From the NCBI RefSeq assembly GCF_000497125.1, contig NC_090599.1, forward strand, positions 620,001 to 684,000: a stretch of 64,000 nt of DNA, written 5' to 3'. Made by a program: the position numbers and the translations under genes. Source of the DNA: Spironucleus salmonicida (taxonomy: Eukaryota). The notes under the pieces are model-generated. The model had not been told where the DNA came from. It searched no databases and worked only from the letters and a program-made list of their open reading frames with translations. Below are positions 1,809-25,234 of this stretch, piece after piece (the stretch's first letter is position 1; each line of letters opens with the position of its first letter).

Positions 1809-3455
1809 ATGCAGTAATAACAGCACCCCTAAATATCAAACAACACCCAGTTTGTTGGTGTCACCTAGGACGAATCTGGCCGCCCTCTGTACATTATCAG
1901 AGACTAGGGCTAGAAATCCCGTAATCGAGGAATTGCAGCGCACAAAGCCAACATCGCAGTCGCACGTGCTCTCTCGTCCACCCTGCAAACGTCTTTAGGC
2001 CCCCGTGGAATGGACAAAATCTTGCAGTCACAGGACTACGAGCTTACGATCACCAACGACGGTGCCACTATTCTGGACAAGATGGAGGTAGAAAATCACG
2101 TGGCGAAGCTCTTAGTCGACCTCTCGAAGTGCTAGGACAACGAAATCGGCGACGGCACCACCGGCGTCGTCGTTATCGCCGGAGCGCTCCTCGAATAGGC
2201 CGAAACGCTCCTGGATAAGGGAATCCACCCGATCCGTATCTCCGAGGGCTACGAGCAGGCCTGCGACATTGCCATCAAGGAACTCGAAAAAATAGCCATT
2301 CTGAACCAAGTTTCGCGCGACAAACTCATCAAATCGGCCAAAACGTCGCTCGGCAGCAAAATCATCAACAGGCACCACGACCACATGTCCGAACTCGCCG
2401 TAGACGCCGTTTTGACCGTAAAAGACGCCCGCGGAGACGTCGATTTCGACCTCATCAAAATAAAGACAAAAATCGGTGGAAAATTAGAGGAAACGCAGCT
2501 CATCTCAGGCGTCGTTTTGGACCAAGATATGTCCCATTAAAACATGCAGAAGGACTTCACAAACGCGAAAATCGCGATTTTGACGTGTCCGTTTGAGCCT
2601 CCAAAGCCCAAAACGACGTACAAAATTGACATTGATTCAGCCGAAAAATACAACGAATTGTACAGACAGGAACAGTCGTTTTTCATCGATATGGTCGACA
2701 GGGTCAAAAAGAGTGGCGCGCAGGTCGTATTTTGCCAATGGGGATTCGACGACGAAGCCAATTCGCTGCTTCAGCAGGCCGGGATTTCTGCCGTTCGCTG
2801 GGCCAAAGGGGAGGATATTGAGGCCCTGGCAATCACCACGCAGGCCAGAATCGTGGCCAGATTCGAGGACCTTTCAGCCGACAAATTGGGCGTCGCTGCT
2901 TCTATTAAGGTCGAGAGCCTGGGGACCAGTTCGGACAAGGTTCTTATCGTCAAAGGCGAAAAATAGTCACTTTGCACGCTCTTTATCAGGGGTGGAAATG
3001 CACTCATTTTGGACGAGGCTGAGCGCTCCCTGCACGACGCAATGTGCGTCGTCAGGAACCTCGTTAGGGACCCGCGCGTCGTGTGCGGTGGCGGCGCTGC
3101 CGAAATCTACTGCTCGCTGAAGATTCTCGAGTTTTTGTCGCAGGGAACCGAGCAGTACGCGATGAGGGCGTTTTCGGAGGCGTTAGAGTCGATTCCTTTG
3201 AATTTGGCAAGAAATTCGGGGCTGAACCCGATTCAGTCGTTGGCAGACGCCAGAAAGCTCCAAAAGGAGCAGAACAGCGGCGTTTTCGGTATCAACTGCG
3301 TCGTCGGCAGCACCGGCGCCGGCGACATGAGGGAGCAAAGCGTGTTCGAGAGCTTTAACAGCAAGAGGCAGCAGTTGATGCTGGCCACACAGGTTGTCAG
3401 GATGATTCTGAAAATTGACGAGGTTATAGACGACAACGAGGGCATGTAGCAGTGA
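1809..3455 (+). CDS. CCT5: T-complex protein 1 subunit epsilon (CCT5), 548 aa
   Basis: [76 protein letters not shown]. One frame with internal TAA/TAG, ending CAG TGA. Confidence 0.97.
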
Positions 3456-5978: not shown

Positions 5979-8072
5979 TCAATGTGTAGTACCCAAGAGT
6001 TTTCCTAGCCCTTTATTTAAAATATCACTGAGTTTACTAACACCTTATACATCTAAAAACTTACCTATTTCATTTGTTTTTTCATTTAATTCTAGAGTTA
6101 AACTTAAATCTCTGAAATTATAGAGTTTTTTACCATTTTCTTAGCAATACTGTTACATTTCTGCAGATGATAGGAACACAAATTTTGAGTACTTATTTTA
6201 TTGAAAATTTATATTTTTAATAGGTCTTCCAGATAATTTCTTTAAAACTGTTTAGAAATGGTTTAGAAGAATTAAATTATAATAAGAATTGGTTTCACCT
6301 TTATTAAGTTTAGCTTCTAGTAAAAATGGACAGAAAGGTAATGTTTCTAAATGAGAGTTATTAAGTGGTAATATTGGTATATTGTTGTGTAATAATACTA
6401 ACTAAGAAAATTCAATTAGTTCTGAAATTTCTGTCCAATTTTCTATTGAAAAATTAACAGAGTTTTCAACTTTAAACCCAAAGTTTTCGGTTGGCTCGAA
6501 AACATAATTTAGCATAACTAATAAAGAAAATGCAAGCTCATACTAATTATTTAATGTAAGATATGATAAAAATTCCTAATGTGGTGAGTCTTTTTATAAA
6601 ATATCAAGAAATTAATCTGTATACAAATTAGTTTATTTTATATTGTTAATAATATTATTAGCTATAGTTTACTAAACAGGCAGATTATTAATGACTGCTG
6701 TAGCTAAAGCTTTGTCAAGTTAATTATGTTTTATATAATTATTTATATCACAAAACTATGTCCCAAACTAAACCTACTGCTAGATTAACTAAAATATTAT
6801 CGATTTATCGCCCAGACGATAAAGAATTGCAGCATAAAAAAGTTAAGAAATACCTTAATTTTATACATTAAGCTTACAGTGATCTATTACTTATTGCAGT
6901 TAAGAAATTTGATACAATGGAAACAAACTGGATAATTTACTTGTTCCAGAAGTTTAATTAATAATATGATTTGGAATAACAATAGAAGAAGTTTATTATT
7001 ATTAAGGAATGAAGACGTTTTATTAAATACTTTATGACAGTGTTGGAGGTTACTAAAGCTAGTTTTATGCTTAATATACCTAAACAGGAATTGGAGGTGG
7101 AACGAAAAACTAAGCTTATTAAGCATCAGATATTACGATAAGTTTCTACACAATCTGCTACTAAAGAATGTTTTATTTTATATCTTTAATCGGTGGTATT
7201 GATATTTGTTGTTCTTACTATTAAAATACTGGCTAATATGGATGTATTTTTTAATTCTCAGTTTTACTAAAGTTTTACTGAAATACAGGTGGAGGAATTG
7301 GAGGAGGAATGGAAGTTGAATTGGAAAATGAGTCATTGGTTAAATTTATGTTATCTGTATGTTTTTATTACGCGAAATATTATTAACTATCTCCTTATTA
7401 CGGCTGTTAAATCTGCATTTTACGTCTCCTTGTTTATGCTGTTGATGAAGTATTCGCAATTTCTGCACCAAAGAATAGTTCAGGTTCTGGATGATTAGCG
7501 TGTGTTTATTCTAATAAGCTAGGCGTGCAATTAGGAAAATCAATTTCAACGGATCTTTATCGCTAATGGGTGGGTAAATTTAGACTTGAACTAGAATGCT
7601 AGTTTTTTGGTACTATTTCACTATCAACTTATGTGTCAGCAATTTCATTGACCATATCAAAAAAAGATTCTGCTTAAGAAAAGTCATTTTGTTATTAGCT
7701 TTATTAAATAAATTAAGACTATACATTAAATTATTGATTATTTTCCGAGCCTACAGTGCTTTTTCTTCTCCTGTGCGATAATGGCTGTAGTTGGTTTAAC
7801 GGATCTTGGCTTGGTATTCTCATTTCTTCACTATTAAAAGGGGGAGGGGTCTAATTAAAAATAATTTCCTGTTACAAAGGAATATTCGGGATGCGCTATA
7901 CCTCAGCTACTGGTAATTATGGCGTAATTTATGTTGTCGACAAAGCTTACTGACTGATTACAGTAGAAATATTCAAACTATCTTATATCATCTACTAATC
8001 ATTAATTTGAGGTATTGGTGGTGTAGCAACCTGTTAAATATCGCCGGAAACTCTTCTTCTTCGAGACGTCAT
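5979..8072 (-). CDS. Pro/Gln-rich N-terminus with helical C-terminal domain, possibly Sec16-like, 697 aa
   Basis: Continuous TGA-free frame checked line by line. Low-complexity PPP/QQQ N-half, then NYIKHNQLDKALATAVINN and NWTEISELIEFSQL. Confidence 0.7.
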
Positions 8073-8210
8073 TTAATTATAAAATAAAAATCTAAATATT
8101 ATATCGTAATATAACCTAGTTAGTAGAGACCAAATTGACTTATTTTGTAAATGCTTACTATTCTAAATTTTATACTAAATTGCTTTAAATGATCATTGTC
8201 TATAATTTAA

Positions 8211-8264
8211 TCTCACTCAATCAGCAGGCCATTCCTGGTTTTCCTGCAAATTTCACTGCGAGAG
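8211..8264 (-). promoter_or_regulatory. SECIS element (GUGA core, type II) of the PITH selenoprotein gene
   Basis: Minus strand reads CTCTCGCA-GTGAA-ATTTGCAGG-AAAA-CCA-GGAA-TGG-CCTGCTGAT-TGAG-TGAGA: helix I, quartet, helix II, A-rich bulge and a GNRA-capped mini-stem. Confidence 0.88.
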
Positions 8265-8283
8265 TTCTCTCGTTAAAAACTGT

Positions 8284-8787
8284 TCAACCTCAGCATGGTG
8301 GCTTAAGGTTTTTCCCTCTTGTGTCCAAATCGTCTGAAAGCTTCCCAAGAAGCTCAATTCCATCAAATATGGTCTCCTCAGAGTCATCTTAATTTTCACT
8401 GAAAAATATAGAAAATTGACTGTTTGGTTTAAGCAAAGTGGAAGAGATCTTGAAGCTCGCAACGTCTTTCACATAATTCAAAGTTGCGGCTACCTTTGTA
8501 AGCTTGGCTGCATCGAATCCAACATGTCCATTAGAGATATATATCTGGGTAGGGCGTGCCTCTTCGTTGTGCGCAATCACGTTGATCTAAACAATTTTTG
8601 CGTTTCCAGGGAAGGTGATTTGGAGGAGCACTTCTGGGTCCGCATCTGACTTGATCTGCTTATTGCAAGATAGAATATCGCCAATGGAGGAGTTCGTGTT
8701 AAGCGCTGTGGATGACTGCACTAAAACCTTGTCATTTAGTAAGTTTTAGGTCATTAGAGGACAATAGAATTAATTAGGGTTTAGCAT
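8284..8787 (-). CDS. PITH-domain protein with predicted C-terminal Cys-Sec-Gly (selenoprotein), 167 aa
   Basis: IKSDADPEVLLQITFPGNAKIVQINV, RPTQIYI and SIFFSENQDDSEETIFDGIELLG match PITH motifs. Ends CCA CCA TGC TGA GGT TGA, followed by a SECIS. An alternative start is ATG at 8754. Confidence 0.85.
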
Positions 8788-8933
8788 ATAATAGTATATA
8801 CTTTAAAAAAATATAAGATCCGTAATTCGTATTAATTTCATATAATAATAAAAAATATTTGAGAACAGAATTACATTAAACAATAGTTAACCAAAACGTA
8901 ACGCTAACCTGAAGTTGAGTTAACTAAATGTAA

Positions 8934-9194
8934 TCAGAAGTAATCACAAATACGAATTGCCTTCATCTAGGATGCTTATGCATTTTGGCTGAGCTGATAA
9001 TCATAAAATTTGATCTTCTTTTTATATTAGCTAATAAGCTGAAGAATGTTAGATTAAAATATTGCACCTACCCCTAATTAGAAAGCATATTGATGTTTGA
9101 GATTTGAGAGCATATGCTGTAACTATAACTTCTTACAGAGCAAGTCATTATAGTTTTGCATACGCGCTTAAAGAAAAGGAAAGGTAAATATCAT
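8934..9194 (-). CDS. Small hypothetical protein, 86 aa
   Basis: ATG-to-TGA frame in table 6 (MIFTFPFLQARMQNY...ICDYF). No recognisable motif. Confidence 0.4.
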
Positions 9195-9320
9195 TTAAAA
9201 ATAACGTTATATTATATATAATATAATTTTATTGCTTTACAAAATTATTTTGTAGTTAATATTTTATTCTATATAATAATCCTATAATTTTTAATTCATT
9301 TCATTCCCACTTTAGCTTGA

Positions 9321-9944
9321 ATGGACTTTTCCTTCTCTAACGACGAAGTAGACAACAACGAGAAAGAAGACTGGGAAATAGAGGCAGAAAAAGCAATAGA
9401 GGCGAAAGAAGAGAAAAACACTCCCCAACAAATTATAGAAGAACCGGAGCTGGATAATGAAATAAAAGCACGCCAATAGCAGCTGTCGCGCGACTAACAC
9501 AACGCCAAAATTGCACAGAAGTTCATGGGCGATGTTTCGACCGACGAAGAAGCCGGCGACATCCAGAGAGACTACACGCTCGAAAACGACTTCATGGCCG
9601 GCGAGGTGAAAGTGGCGAAAAAGAATGTTTTTGACGTCAAATTAGACAGTTACGAGTCGTTCGACAGATTCGGTACGAAAATAGGAGCGGAATTCGAATA
9701 ATTCTACAGCAAAGGAATGGAAGTTCAGTACATCGGAATGTTCAAGAAGATGGTGGAGGCGGCTTTTGCGACGTTGCAGCCCGAACACATTTCCGCACTG
9801 GGAAAGTTCTGCTATGACACAGCAAACGCACAAATCAAATCCAAGAGCGGCAAAAAGGCAACTAAAAAACCGGCTGTGAAGAAGGCTCAAATCAATACGT
9901 ATGCGGCCAAACTTGGTGATGACGACGAGGATGATTTTATGTGA
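9321..9944 (+). CDS. EIF3J: Translation initiation factor eIF3 subunit J-like, 207 aa
   Basis: Acidic N-terminus with EDWE, Lys-rich C-terminal region, and the characteristic terminal DDDEDDFM. Confidence 0.8.
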
Positions 9945-16030: not shown

Positions 16031-17002
16031 TTCTGAATTAAGTATACGTATATATATAAGGAATTATTTAACTACTTAAAAAAATTAGAGAGTTTATTTA
16101 TTTTATAGAGATTTACTGTTATATTGGTATTTAAGAATCACAATTAATACCAAGTTGAATTTATGTATAATTAATCTCCTTAAGTTCCAAATATAAACAA
16201 TTCTGTATATAAAAATTATTTGTATTATATAATGTACTAATATAAATTATACACATAGTTTAATATGTAAAGTGCTCTGCTTAACTAGATATTTATATAA
16301 AAAATGATTTTTAAATTTGTGTAAATATTCTACTTCTATATAAATTATTACCAATTTTAATTATATAGTTACTGATATTCTGAGAGTATTGTGATTTATC
16401 ATAATAATAAATTTAAAAATCTGTAAAAACTGAAATAACATTAAGAATTATTATTAAATAATAATTTATTGTTATCGAGTACACTAATTAGTAAATTTAA
16501 TTTCATGAATATAAAGATAAAATTATTTGATGTAAAGTACATAATAGTGATATAAATTCAAGGACTAGGTTATGATAAGCAAAAATAATGAACCTCTTGA
16601 CAAGCTAAATTTTAGTAACAATAAATAATCAAATTATTTATTAGCTATTAATGGATTAAAATAACACCGTAGGATTTTTTTAAAGGAATTTTAGAATTTT
16701 TAATAATAAACTTTATACTTAACGAATACTCGTATTAAAAGGAGTTAAATAATTTAAACTAATAAAACGTATCTATTATAAGATATATTGTATATGTTTA
16801 TATTATGTAAACTTCTGGGTTTATTCGAAGTAGATACAAAATTAAAATATAACAGACGGTTATTACTTATTTTTAATTTCTAAATATAATAATTATATAA
16901 TTTATAATCATAACTTTAGATATTAATAACTCGCTGTCTTTTTATAAACTAAAATATAGAAAAATAGATACAATTATCTTTTAAATATTTTATTCTCACT
17001 AT

Positions 17003-18923
17003 AAATGAGTGTCACACCGGACGCGATCAACATCATCCACAAGGGCAGCGGGGACGACGGCCTCCTGCCCGCCAAGCTACCACGGGAATCCTCTAAACCG
17101 TACCTAGCGTACCGCAAGTTCGTCGAGTTCTTCTTCCCACCCTCGGTATCGGACGGCGGTTGCTCGCGCCTGATCTCTATCGAGTTCACCCGCGGCATCG
17201 CCATCTTTATCATGATAGTCGGTCACGAGGCCCTGACCTCACTGTCGCTGGAGGAGCGGACATCGCCAGTGCTGTGGCGCAAGCTGCTGTTCTACGCGCT
17301 TGTGACGCCCATCGGGGTGCTGACGGGGTGGCGGTCCATCTTCGTCCTGCTTTCGGGGATCGGGATGGGATACTCCTTCTTCCAGAAGATCACGTACCCG
17401 AACCCCCGCCATATGGTTGCGTAGACACTGCTCTCGCTGCTGGGGTGCGTGCTGCTGCTCCCGCTGTACTACGTGTACCACACGCTGCAGGTTCTATCCT
17501 ACCAGGACCCGCTCGGAGACTTCAAACTGGCCACACCCTTCTACACCAAGCTCGACACGCTGTCCCAGGCGCCCATCTTCTTCGGTCTCTCGCTGCCGCT
17601 CACGCTGCTCGTGTTGCTCGCGCTATACCTGTGCATCGGCTTCCCACTGCGCAAGCGCCTGTCGCAGGAGCGCATTCTGGTCGTTATCGCAGTGGTGTGC
17701 ACCGTGATTGCTTGCCTGCAGAACTTCCTCTTTTCCTACGTCTCTCTCGGGTTGCGCCACCTATTTTCCCGTACCTGGAAGTACGAGAACATCCCCGCTG
17801 CGGACTGGCCAATCGAGTGTCCCGCGAATAAGCTCAATCAGCAGACCTTATTCGGGGCGCACATCCAGTCCATCTTCATGCACTTCCTCGCCGGGGAGGT
17901 TATGCAGGTGAACCCGCTCTTCAGCTACTTCTTCGTTGGCTTCGCCTACGCCGCCATGCTCGTGCGCTTCAAGCTCATCAAGAAGCAGCTGCTCGACCGC
18001 GATGACCGTGAGGAGGCAGCCACCGCGTACCAGGCCGAGCGCCGCCGGTACATTATTATGGGCTGGGCCTACCCCGCGTTCTGGTTCCTCATCAGCGTGC
18101 TCGTTAGCGTACAGGCGCGCCAGGAACTCAAGTCCGGGCTCCGCAGCTACGTCTTCGACATCACCATGTTCCTTGCGAGCCAGCAGCCCACCGACTGGTG
18201 CCTGGTGCCTGAGTTTTCCTGCCCCACGCTGGTTGCGGAGATAGTGCTCCTGAACCTCGGCTTCTACCTCTTCGAATTCGGTACCAAGCCGGTGACCTAC
18301 GTACGCACGCAGCGTATCCTCTTCCTCCGTCGTTTTTCCTCGATGAGCTTCACCTACTTCGTGTTCTCGCGCTACCTCGGCAGACCAATGTACAGCATCC
18401 TACGCGTCAGCAAACTCAACTCGCTCACCACGCTGCAGTTCTACGGCTACATGGGCATCTACTTCTGTGTAACGCTCTGCATCCAGCTCGCGCTCGACAC
18501 CATCTACTGCCGGCTTATGCCAGACTGGATCATCAAGCGGTGGTCAGACCTGTTCATGGTCAAGAAGAGCGCCCGCACCGAGCTCAGCGATAACCACCTC
18601 AACGTGCGGCCGGTAATCCTGTTCGGCAAGGTGCTAGAGTGAGTCAGATACCAACTCAGAAATACGCCCCGGGGCCAGGCGCCGTCTCCCTCGCCGGCTT
18701 CTTGTGCCGCTCCTGGATCAGCAGCGAACCCCCGCGCTTTTGCACGACCACGTTGTACTCCCCGGGTCCTACGGTAGGCTTAGGCTGCCGCTCCTGCATC
18801 TGGCTGAACTTAGCGCTCACGTTCTGGAAGATGCGGTCCCGCGAGATCTCGTATTGGCCAGGGCCGGGCGCCGTGCCACGCTCCGGGGCGGCCTCCCGCT
18901 TCTGCCCGATGTACCCGCCCTTC
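17003..18923. repeat. Direct segmental duplication, copy A (pairs with 23595-25515)
   Basis: Near-identical 1.92 kb at offset 6592. One difference seen, Pro/Ser at codon 5. Confidence 0.95.
17005..18642 (+). CDS. Multi-pass membrane protein, HGSNAT/DUF1624-like transmembrane acyltransferase, 545 aa (copy A)
   Basis: Track ORFs 17005 and 17449 are one frame joined through a TAG. RLISIEFTRGIAIFIMIVGH motif and many TM segments. Ends GAG TGA. Confidence 0.8.
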
Positions 18924-22053: not shown

Positions 22054-23596
22054 TTGAAATGCGTGTGGAAAAATATATAGGAAAATATATAATAATTAGA
22101 CTAAAAACTTAGAGAAATTGCAATGGAATTGGCAAAATGTGTAGTTTATGAGCGAAGTGATAGGTGAGGTCTATGTATAGGCATATGAGTTTTAAAATTT
22201 ATTAGTGTCGGTTTTATTCCAATGAATAGATAATAGTAACTAGAAAAAAATAATTTATAAGATTTAAGGTAAAATTAATGAATCTTTTATATGTGATTAA
22301 AAATAGGTTTTGGTTTTGCTTTAATACACTATGTATAGTGTTTTTGAAGTTATAATTAGGTGTGGTATTTTTGGAATGAAATTAACTATTAGTAAGAAGA
22401 ATGAGTTTCTCTTGAACCATATTAAATGATAGATAAATTTTGATATGTAAATAATGTTGGTAGTTATATAAAGCCAATAGCTTCAAGTTGGTATAATTTA
22501 TCTTTAATGATGTTCTAAAAACTAAAAAGTTTTAAAGTTTACGAATTAATACATATTCAAACTAGCAAATTATTATATGAATTAATAAATTATCGATCTA
22601 TGCCTCTTATTTATCAGTATAAATAAAAAATTAGAAAACTAAGAATAAGATATTTAACTGCTTGCATTAATATTATTCTTACGATAGTCTTGCTATTTCA
22701 AAATTTATTGTTGTCATTATGTATATAATTGCTATTTAACTTTTAATCAGTAAATTTGATTATTTAAATTGAGACTATGCTTGATTCAATTTTCAGGTTA
22801 AAAAATATATATACGCAAGTGATATTTTGGTTTTGTAAACTATTCAATCATATAGCTAGTATTTCATATTGAGGTATTTATACTCCGGGTTAAAATGGTT
22901 ATTGCATATTCAAAACATCATACTTCAATTTATATTTCATATATCAATAGCTTTTAACTTCATTTATTTTTATATTAGTATGTTTATGAATAAATAATAT
23001 TATTAATATATAACGTAAAATTAGTAGTTATAATCCTAAAGAGGAATAATAATTATTTATAATAGATCTTTTATAATATGTCAAAAAAACAAAGAAATGT
23101 TATAAATGACAGATAAAGTAATTTTCTTTTATTTTGTAAAACTAATAGAGGCGATATATATTATTATTTAGTATTAGTTACTACTATGCATCAATTTTAG
23201 TATGAGTACATTGCAAAAAATATTTACATATAATTTTTCGTACAATATCTATTAAATGTATCAATAGTTAATTATTTTATTGTTCACATATGAAATTAAT
23301 AAAGATAAATAAAGATAATTCCGGATAATTATGTATACCATTTTTTCTAAATACAAAATTATTAAACTAATAAGTAATTATTTACTTCTTAGAATAATCG
23401 TAACATATTTAAAAATAATAACTGATGAATGTATTCATAATATATTCTACAAGTAAAAAGAAAAAACTACTTTCTTTTTGATTAAATATATAAAATAAAT
23501 GTTATTGTATTAGAATTCTTTTATGTTTAAACCGCTTAAGAGATCAATGTATTTAATTAAATTAACTAATTTATTAAAAAAATCAGTAATCTAAAA

Positions 23597-25234
23597 ATGA
23601 GTGTCACATCGGACGCGATCAACATCATCCACAAGGGCAGCGGGGACGACGGCCTCCTGCCCGCCAAGCTACCACGGGAATCCTCTAAACCGTACCTAGC
23701 GTACCGCAAGTTCGTCGAGTTCTTCTTCCCACCCTCGGTATCGGACGGCGGTTGCTCGCGCCTGATCTCTATCGAGTTCACCCGCGGCATCGCCATCTTT
23801 ATCATGATAGTCGGTCACGAGGCCCTGACCTCACTGTCGCTGGAGGAGCGGACATCGCCAGTGCTGTGGCGCAAGCTGCTGTTCTACGCGCTTGTGACGC
23901 CCATCGGGGTGCTGACGGGGTGGCGGTCCATCTTCGTCCTGCTTTCGGGGATCGGGATGGGATACTCCTTCTTCCAGAAGATCACGTACCCGAACCCCCG
24001 CCATATGGTTGCGTAGACACTGCTCTCGCTGCTGGGGTGCGTGCTGCTGCTCCCGCTGTACTACGTGTACCACACGCTGCAGGTTCTATCCTACCAGGAC
24101 CCGCTCGGAGACTTCAAACTGGCCACACCCTTCTACACCAAGCTCGACACGCTGTCCCAGGCGCCCATCTTCTTCGGTCTCTCGCTGCCGCTCACGCTGC
24201 TCGTGTTGCTCGCGCTATACCTGTGCATCGGCTTCCCACTGCGCAAGCGCCTGTCGCAGGAGCGCATTCTGGTCGTTATCGCAGTGGTGTGCACCGTGAT
24301 TGCTTGCCTGCAGAACTTCCTCTTTTCCTACGTCTCTCTCGGGTTGCGCCACCTATTTTCCCGTACCTGGAAGTACGAGAACATCCCCGCTGCGGACTGG
24401 CCAATCGAGTGTCCCGCGAATAAGCTCAATCAGCAGACCTTATTCGGGGCGCACATCCAGTCCATCTTCATGCACTTCCTCGCCGGGGAGGTTATGCAGG
24501 TGAACCCGCTCTTCAGCTACTTCTTCGTTGGCTTCGCCTACGCCGCCATGCTCGTGCGCTTCAAGCTCATCAAGAAGCAGCTGCTCGACCGCGATGACCG
24601 TGAGGAGGCAGCCACCGCGTACCAGGCCGAGCGCCGCCGGTACATTATTATGGGCTGGGCCTACCCCGCGTTCTGGTTCCTCATCAGCGTGCTCGTTAGC
24701 GTACAGGCGCGCCAGGAACTCAAGTCCGGGCTCCGCAGCTACGTCTTCGACATCACCATGTTCCTTGCGAGCCAGCAGCCCACCGACTGGTGCCTGGTGC
24801 CTGAGTTTTCCTGCCCCACGCTGGTTGCGGAGATAGTGCTCCTGAACCTCGGCTTCTACCTCTTCGAATTCGGTACCAAGCCGGTGACCTACGTACGCAC
24901 GCAGCGTATCCTCTTCCTCCGTCGTTTTTCCTCGATGAGCTTCACCTACTTCGTGTTCTCGCGCTACCTCGGCAGACCAATGTACAGCATCCTACGCGTC
25001 AGCAAACTCAACTCGCTCACCACGCTGCAGTTCTACGGCTACATGGGCATCTACTTCTGTGTAACGCTCTGCATCCAGCTCGCGCTCGACACCATCTACT
25101 GCCGGCTTATGCCAGACTGGATCATCAAGCGGTGGTCAGACCTGTTCATGGTCAAGAAGAGCGCCCGCACCGAGCTCAGCGATAACCACCTCAACGTGCG
25201 GCCGGTAATCCTGTTCGGCAAGGTGCTAGAGTGA
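23597..25234 (+). CDS. HGSNAT/DUF1624-like membrane protein, 545 aa (copy B)
   Basis: Near-identical to 17005-18642. Confidence 0.8.

Follow-up and report, generated by a model that had tools for sequence, protein, structure and literature searches.

A candidate selenocysteine at the tail of a stand-alone PITH protein in Spironucleus salmonicida

A gene encoding a PITH-domain protein in the diplomonad Spironucleus salmonicida carries two in-frame TGA codons separated by a single Gly codon, and the question is whether the first of them ends the protein or is read as selenocysteine (Sec). The gene lies in a 64,000-nucleotide (nt) stretch of contig NC_090599.1 (positions 620,001 to 684,000, forward strand; the whole stretch is called the window and all coordinates are window positions). 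Both S. salmonicida and its relative S. barkhanus possess the Sec factors tRNA-Sec, SelB and SelD, and the only selenoproteins reported from them are SelW proteins, of which Spironucleus has three paralogs with no selenocysteine insertion sequence (SECIS) detectable by ERPIN (PMC3916229, PMC2874811). No tRNA gene lies within the window. We conclude that the PITH protein is probably a real selenoprotein in which TGA 8290-8292 is read as Sec. Taken as a whole, recoding to Sec combined with a protein tail that reaches the zinc of the proteasomal deubiquitinase Rpn11 appears to be the best explanation of the locus, and we hold it with moderate confidence.

Read directly on the minus strand from the ATG at 8754-8752, the gene ends CCA CCA TGC TGA GGT TGA, with the Cys codon at 8295-8293, the first TGA at 8292-8290, the Gly codon at 8289-8287 and the second TGA at 8286-8284. 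This is the Cys-UGA-Gly-UGA ending that an initial annotation of the locus had described, and both its coordinates and its codon reading are correct in the sequence and the translation. The frame contains five in-frame TAA or TAG codons (read as Gln) and is open under genetic code 6 only. That code has independent support in the window from an open reading frame (ORF) for a TCP-1/CCT chaperonin (1809-3455), which contains 11 TAA/TAG codons and scores 519 bits with Pfam. The gene encodes a stand-alone PITH protein, TAA and TAG specify Gln and TGA is the only stop. Translation with code 6 and TGA as U gives a protein that ends ...DTRGKNLKPPCUG ahead of the second TGA, and the three PITH peptide motifs quoted in the initial annotation are all present in the translation. 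A further in-frame ATG lies upstream at 8841, but the start was placed at 8754 because the relatives of the protein all begin M-T/N-D-L at that point. The deposited copy of the protein (P0003) has 154 residues and ends in Cys; as had been predicted, annotation closed the gene at the first TGA. The window has 45 non-overlapping ORFs of at least 150 residues; in three of them another in-frame TGA follows the first no more than two codons on, and the PITH gene alone has Gly between the tandem TGAs.

The assignment to the PITH family survived the profile search. Pfam family PF06201 matched residues 3-140 over profile positions 8-161 of 176 with E = 2e-16 and 60.5 bits (cut-off 23.7 bits), and no other Pfam family reached its cut-off in the 154-residue protein. 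The AlphaFold2 model, based on a 14-row alignment, had a predicted local distance difference test score (pLDDT) of 85.6 and a predicted template modelling score of 0.79, and consists of a beta-sandwich followed by a 13-residue tail (residues 144-156) with pLDDT values below 50. When the model was compared with the Protein Data Bank (PDB) by Foldseek, the best matches were the TXNL1 chains in complex with human 26S proteasomes (9e8o_u, 9e8g_u and 9e8i_u; template modelling (TM) score 0.75, E 7e-9 to 1e-8). The next matches were the PITH/DUF1000 structures 1wwy and 1xoy followed by APC10/DOC domains, the top five having E values of 6.6e-9 to 7.7e-8. A profile made from the alignment found TXNL1 among the PDB sequences at E = 1.9e-42. 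Pfam detected no thioredoxin (Trx) domain with a CxxC motif, and the protein begins only two residues ahead of the PITH domain, its relatives of 150-154 residues likewise starting at the domain, in keeping with the earlier claim that the Trx domain is missing. Pyridine-nucleotide disulfide oxidoreductase domains that bind flavin adenine dinucleotide or NADPH (nicotinamide adenine dinucleotide phosphate) likewise had no Pfam match in a protein of 154-156 residues in total. The protein is a stand-alone PITH domain without a Trx domain, and its tail is predicted to be floppy.

The relatives carry the argument from the gene to its tail. A full HMMER scan of 1.84 billion representative proteins gave 10 proteins at E <= 0.001, the deposited copy P0003 included, and word-indexed searches gave 1, 6 and 5 proteins. 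A subfamily was assembled from the two closest HMMER matches, the proteins found by profile and the members of their clusters. These relatives are PITH-only proteins of 150-154 residues that are 27-32% identical to the window protein and share its N-terminus; two of them, P0026 and P0027 (CAL6044965.1 and CAL5979355.1), are named Hexamita inflata by NCBI. In each of the eight full-length relatives the tail has one Cys, second or third from the end, after which come only Gly or Gly-Gly. Four of these (P0026, P0027, P0004 and P0025) end ...GCGG and four (P0005, P0017, P0018 and P0024) end ...[QRK]CG. In alignment A3, in which U was given to the aligner as C, the Sec column is an invariant Cys in seven of seven relatives and the next column an invariant Gly; P0027 ends alike. 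An ending in Cys-Gly or Cys-Gly-Gly is common to all eight relatives, and the window protein acquires its Gly only if the first TGA is read as Sec; with a stop at 8290-8292 the protein ends in Cys and lacks the Gly. The in-frame UGA thus has a conserved continuation (TGA-GGT-TGA): the one-Gly extension matches the terminal Gly of the relatives, while being too short for a codon-level test.

Eight members of the subfamily were left out of the tail count: P0013, P0016, P0019, P0021 and P0022 (99 residues), and P0014, P0015 and P0020 (ending ...H). They stop ahead of the tail at positions where full-length members have Gln or Arg, and these early ends are most likely TAA or TAG codons taken as stops by the gene caller. 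Several members of the P0005 cluster stop where the full-length ones have Gln, so that in at least this group TAA/TAG are sense codons as well. The protein searches, which covered proteins of 82-273 residues and hence neither longer fused nor shorter split forms, gave no Sec-containing or other new member, and a metagenome scan with alignment A2 gave 174 stretches that fitted the pattern, none of which was confirmed by tblastn.

Downstream of the second TGA lies a hairpin with the full layout of a type-II SECIS, and we regard it as a SECIS-like candidate. The initial annotation had proposed such a hairpin with a GUGA core, and both RNAfold and our own descriptor found it. The minus-strand segment 8285-8195 folds with -20.1 kcal/mol (z = -2.64), and two of 200 shuffled sequences were equally stable. 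The descriptor asked for [AG]UGA as the core, 9-12 positions in helix II with at most one mismatch, AA straight after that helix, GA straight after its 3' arm and 5 base pairs (bp) in helix I. On both strands of the window (128 kb of strand) it matched once, at the PITH hairpin, compared with a mean of 0.02 matches per window in 100 dinucleotide shuffles, an expectation that is optimistic because the descriptor was composed after the hairpin had been seen. GUGA cores are described as rare in eukaryotes and common in the selenoprotein genes of Ostreococcus (PMC11227280). Several weak Rfam matches (snR39, GlsR14, CRISPR-DR50, RAGATH-25 and ZFAT-AS1_3) lie far under their gathering scores and were dismissed as chance.

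A hairpin can act only if it is in the message, and assembled contigs from four sequencing runs (X1-X4, all of one study and possibly RNA) were compared with the window over 7950-9150. Contigs of all four runs showed no difference from the window across both TGAs. Record 1 of X1 and record 11 of X4 span the two TGAs and have over 31 further letters to either side, record 5 of X2 does so for the first TGA only and record 8 of X3 covers both without that margin; X1 record 1 and X2 record 5 each have one mismatch that falls somewhere near the contig end. The contigs reach 8220 (X1), 8224 (X4), 8256 (X2) and 8262 (X3), so that in two of the four runs they extend about 64 nt past the second TGA and span the core, the A bulge and nearly the entire 3' arm of helix II. 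They do not cover 8211-8219, 8073-8195, 8770-8892 or the sequence upstream of 8739, gaps that count neither for nor against, and such contigs cannot define RNA ends. A loose end of X1 at 8931 consists of adapter plus poly(T), which suggests that the runs contain polyadenylated cDNA. The X1 and X2 contigs both end at 8739, 15 nt inside the ORF that starts with the ATG at 8754, with adapter directly behind; this probably reflects the loss of 5' ends in library making together with a very short 5' untranslated region (UTR).

The length of the transcribed 3' region matters in this organism. In S. salmonicida poly(A) is reported to follow the stop codon at an average distance of 13.2 nt, and at 9-14 nt in 122 of 134 cDNAs; the UGA, flanked by A at -2 and by U at +1, is apparently part of the poly(A) signal (PMC1805757; PMC2874811). 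Within the window, 25 of the 45 ORF stops have A at -2, many of them as AGTGA, and both PITH TGAs have G at -2. The AGTGA stop context resembles the Giardia poly(A) signal AGTRAAY (PMC1805757). From its stop context, the PITH gene may escape stop-linked polyadenylation and so keep the hairpin in its message; the sequence AAUGAU, directly 3' of the hairpin, would be a candidate for the signal that ends it.

From these elements the following reading can be proposed. TGA 8290-8292 would be recoded to Sec by the SECIS-like kink-turn hairpin that begins 27 nt further on, giving a product that ends Cys154-Sec155-Gly156, and some chains may terminate at Cys154. The Sec of this lineage would then sit where some relatives have their tail Cys. 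Several points weigh against this reading, and most of them speak for the simpler view that the first TGA is a plain stop, that the protein ends at Cys154 as in the deposited P0003, that GGT-TGA is a chance feature of the 3' UTR and that the hairpin has no part in recoding. From the UGA it is only 27 nt to helix I and 33 nt to the core, with the hairpin 21 nt past the stop codon, and work in mammals sets the minimum UGA-SECIS spacing far higher, at roughly 50-110 nt. At E <= 10 the Rfam SECIS families gave no match, whether 7900-9000 or the 101-nt segment 8195-8295 was searched. The 3' side of the internal loop reads UGAG, the base after the 3' GA being G, and the consensus is KGAW, with A or U after GA (quoted in PMC3753652). 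Tandem TGAs are not peculiar to this gene, as the three ORFs in the window attest, and a terminal Cys154 would itself parallel the terminal His ligand of TXNL1. The proteins searched and the metagenome scan gave no Sec-bearing ortholog, so that the UGA and the hairpin are without comparative support. Finally, 2-3 residues (K-P-P) are inserted in the tail of the window protein, and the Cys of the relatives may match C154 or U155; in the alignment the relatives do supply a Cys homolog at the Sec column, in a register that is ambiguous with respect to C154. A plain stop nevertheless demands that several independent features coincide. The anatomy of a SECIS would have to be complete, where so few matches are expected per window, by accident; a Gly codon and a stop would by accident restore the Cys-Gly ending of all eight relatives; and contigs would run well past the stops in a group with 3' UTRs of about 13 nt. 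Hence we consider the plain stop unlikely, while allowing it appreciable weight.

The same contig ends bear on another view of the hairpin region, as a signal for 3'-end formation, and not a SECIS, in a gene whose TGAs have a poor context. The sequence AGUGAA at 8257-8252 resembles both the Giardia AGTRAAY consensus and the AGTGA stop context of the window. That consensus and a link between stop codon and poly(A) site are both on record (PMC1805757), and the G at -2 of both PITH TGAs, set beside the A at -2 of most window stops, would fit such a need. However, the X1 and X4 contigs run 29-33 nt beyond the UGA of AGUGAA (to 8220 and 8224) versus the reported 9-14 nt, and a two-helix kink-turn with an A bulge is needless for polyadenylation. 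We judge this explanation to be highly improbable as a replacement for Sec recoding, and the SECIS and poly(A)-signal roles of the hairpin are in any case mutually compatible.

Given Sec recoding as the preferred reading, what might the tail do? The premise of the initial annotation, that the tail of TXNL1 extends to the zinc site of Rpn11, is in print: TXNL1 has an unstructured C-terminal tail that occupies a groove of PSMD14/Rpn11, where H289, the residue at its end, is a ligand of the catalytic zinc; TXNL1 binds less well in the presence of a zinc chelator, and PITHD1 engages these interfaces too (PMC12700798). Human and yeast Rpn11 are reported to be inhibited by peptides that expose one Cys, with low micromolar half-maximal inhibitory concentrations and without disulfide formation (2026 preprint PMC13648738). 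By analogy, the PITH body of the window protein would dock on the 19S regulatory particle in the manner of TXNL1. The tail, which like those of its relatives ends in Gly or Gly-Gly and so resembles a ubiquitin C-terminus, would lie in the Rpn11 groove, its thiolate or selenolate binding the catalytic zinc as His289 does. Sec would be a stronger and fully ionised zinc ligand, and, more speculatively, a Cys154-Sec155 selenenylsulfide formed on oxidation could switch zinc binding off. That the tail tip binds the Rpn11 zinc is a tentative proposal that we would put somewhat short of an even chance. The tail has no His and ends C-U-G in place of the TXNL1-type terminal His. The distance of the ligand residue from an invariant Gly is 15 residues to the Cys of the relatives, 17-18 in the window protein and 22 to H289 of TXNL1, and the tail, 4-7 residues short of the length it has in TXNL1, may not reach the zinc. 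In our reading of the alignments, the TXNL1 interface residues E136 and R234 are replaced by Thr and Ser, respectively, and D162 is conserved.

The Cys-Sec pair could instead be put to redox use. If Sec is inserted, a condition on which this alternative depends and which makes it a rival to the mechanistic half of the proposal only, the pair might form a redox centre at the proteasome like that of thioredoxin reductase, cycling through a selenenylsulfide and reducing or sensing substrates or peroxides, and would not ligate zinc. Animal thioredoxin reductases have a flexible tail that ends in Cys-Sec-Gly-COOH, the last codon but one being UGA, and a C-U-G terminus is their tail motif. With TXNL1, a Trx domain that is redox-active likewise arrives at this site (PMC10570131, PMC12700817). 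Recycling of the pair would, however, lack both a flavoprotein and a Trx domain, and the eight relatives have a single tail Cys, so that the ancestral function of the tail would have done without a vicinal pair. What the single tail Cys of the relatives fits best is therefore a metal ligand or a nucleophile acting alone, less so a vicinal redox pair, and a redox centre seems to us improbable. The resemblance to thioredoxin reductase drawn in the initial annotation accordingly holds for the tail motif; it does not extend to a flavoprotein domain, which is absent, and the single Cys of the relatives suits a redox pair less well.

The proposal can be carried further, to a selenium-tipped mimic of the ubiquitin C-terminus whose body sits on Rpn2/Rpn10, whose selenolate caps the Rpn11 zinc more tightly than Cys or His and is released as a selenenylsulfide under oxidative stress, and whose gene would place UGA and SECIS closer together (27 nt) than any other known in eukaryotes, with UGA serving as stop, as Sec codon and as part of the poly(A) signal. 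We offer this full version as a long shot. If it were true, proteasomal deubiquitination would answer directly to redox state and selenium supply. Other consequences would follow from the parts. Since three SelW paralogs and no SECIS are all that has been reported in Spironucleus, a fourth selenoprotein with a readable SECIS, if real, would be a template for finding the rest, and the gene would offer a system in which to study how UGA is sorted among stop, Sec and poly(A) signal at 3' UTRs of about 13 nt. The annotation would also need correction, as the deposited protein would be two residues short and would lack its probable key residue.

The coordinates of the features are collected below. 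Among the neighbours of the PITH gene, the minus-strand ORF at 5979-8072 encodes 697 residues rich in Gln and Pro with no Pfam family and has a direct TGA-TGA tandem as its stop, and the plus-strand ORF at 9321-9944 (207 residues) has a sub-threshold match to an eIF3 subunit (eIF3j-like; E = 2.9e-5, 24.5 bits, cut-off 28.9). Between these, minus-strand 8931-9150 is covered by contigs from all four runs, the loose end of X1 pointing to a polyadenylated transcript, and 13 nt ahead of this loose end there is a TGA (8947-8945). The ORFs there (8934-9299 and 8963-9148) look non-coding, and 8917-8968 has a weak Rfam match to the Giardia C/D small nucleolar RNA GlsR14 (E = 0.65). Elsewhere the window contains four large segmental duplications, one direct (16999-18923/23591-25515; 99.9% identity) and three inverted (45321-47212/58223-56332, 99.4%; 29363-30762/33833-32433, 99.9%; 27766-29202/51141-49705, 92.9%). 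The direct pair duplicates most of an ORF for a multi-pass membrane protein with no Pfam family (16588-18642 and 23429-25234). GC content is very uneven, from 23% to 62% per 2-kb window, with GC-rich blocks at 24-26, 28-30, 34-36 and 60-64 kb, where long ORFs occur on both strands because TGA is the sole stop.

Table 1 Features of the PITH gene and its 3' region (window positions)
Feature	Position	Strand	Basis or remark
PITH-only protein gene	8284..8754	-	156 codons if TGA 8290-8292 is Sec (M1...C154-U155-G156), then TGA
PITH domain, residues 3-140	8335..8748	-	Pfam PF06201, AlphaFold2, Foldseek
Flexible C-terminal tail DTRGKNLKPPCUG, residues 144-156 (predicted)	8287..8325	-	pLDDT <50; D-[TV]-R...C-G motif common to relatives
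In-frame TGA, proposed Sec155 codon	8290..8292	-	Aligned with the invariant Cys of the relatives; unchanged in contigs of 4/4 runs
Second TGA, proposed true stop after Gly156	8284..8286	-	Direct reading, translation
Type-II SECIS-like hairpin	8211..8264	-	RNAfold, own descriptor
Helix I	8262-8258 with 8216-8212	-	RNAfold
Internal loop, A-GUGA (5' side) and GA (3' side)	GUGA core 8256-8253; GA 8218-8217	-	RNAfold
Helix II, 10 positions, one U.U mismatch	8252-8243 with 8228-8219	-	RNAfold
AAAA bulge, begins 10 nt past core	8242-8239	-	RNAfold
Mini-stem, 3 bp + 4-nt loop	8238-8229	-	RNAfold
AAUGAU, candidate end-of-message signal (UGA, A at -2, U at +1)	8192..8197	-	Directly 3' of hairpin; inferred from sequence

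How the locus stands to known systems depends on which of its parts is compared. The initial annotation had put the protein forward as a candidate new selenoprotein family, and this fails because PITH is already in the list of 42 algal selenoprotein families of Jiang 2020, where it is without a Trx-like domain and stands outside the three families that the paper presents as novel (PMC7539508). The algal proteins resemble the window protein in having Sec and in lacking a Trx-like domain; they differ in taxon, algae as against a diplomonad, and the main text of that paper gives no Sec position for them. No description of a diplomonad PITH selenoprotein or of a diplomonad SECIS was found in the literature searched, which did not extend to subscription papers, and within that literature the PITH protein would be the first non-SelW selenoprotein, and its hairpin the first SECIS, for a diplomonad. 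The hairpin shares with eukaryotic type-II SECIS elements the helix I, the quartet of UGA and GA, the length of helix II (about 10 bp), the unpaired A run and the mini-stem, and differs from them in having no Rfam match, in UGAG in place of KGAW and in lying 21 nt from the stop.

The tail motif Cys-Sec-Gly is shared with animal thioredoxin reductase, which is non-homologous; the window protein has no oxidoreductase domain, and Pro, not Gly, precedes its Cys. The diplomonad PITH-only proteins resemble it in length, in consisting of PITH alone, in the N-terminus and in the D-[TV]-R...C-G tail; they have one Cys and no Sec, whereas the window protein has the Cys-Sec pair and the K-P-P insertion. 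TXNL1 (TRP32; PDB 9BW4, 9E8G-9E8O) differs in several respects: the window protein has no N-terminal Trx domain and a shorter tail, is about 15% identical in the structural alignment, offers as its ligand candidate Cys or Sec followed by Gly and not a terminal His, and does not conserve the equivalents of E136 and R234. The two nevertheless have in common the fold, an unstructured C-terminal tail past the last strand, a residue suited to bind metal at or adjoining the C-terminus, and D162 of the SD.D motif. A diplomonad PITH-only subfamily tipped with Cys or Cys-Sec would extend the findings on zinc ligation by TXNL1 and on the recognition of exposed cysteines by Rpn11, and the analogy suggests for PITH proteins a "tail-on-zinc" mode that would be old as well as variable.

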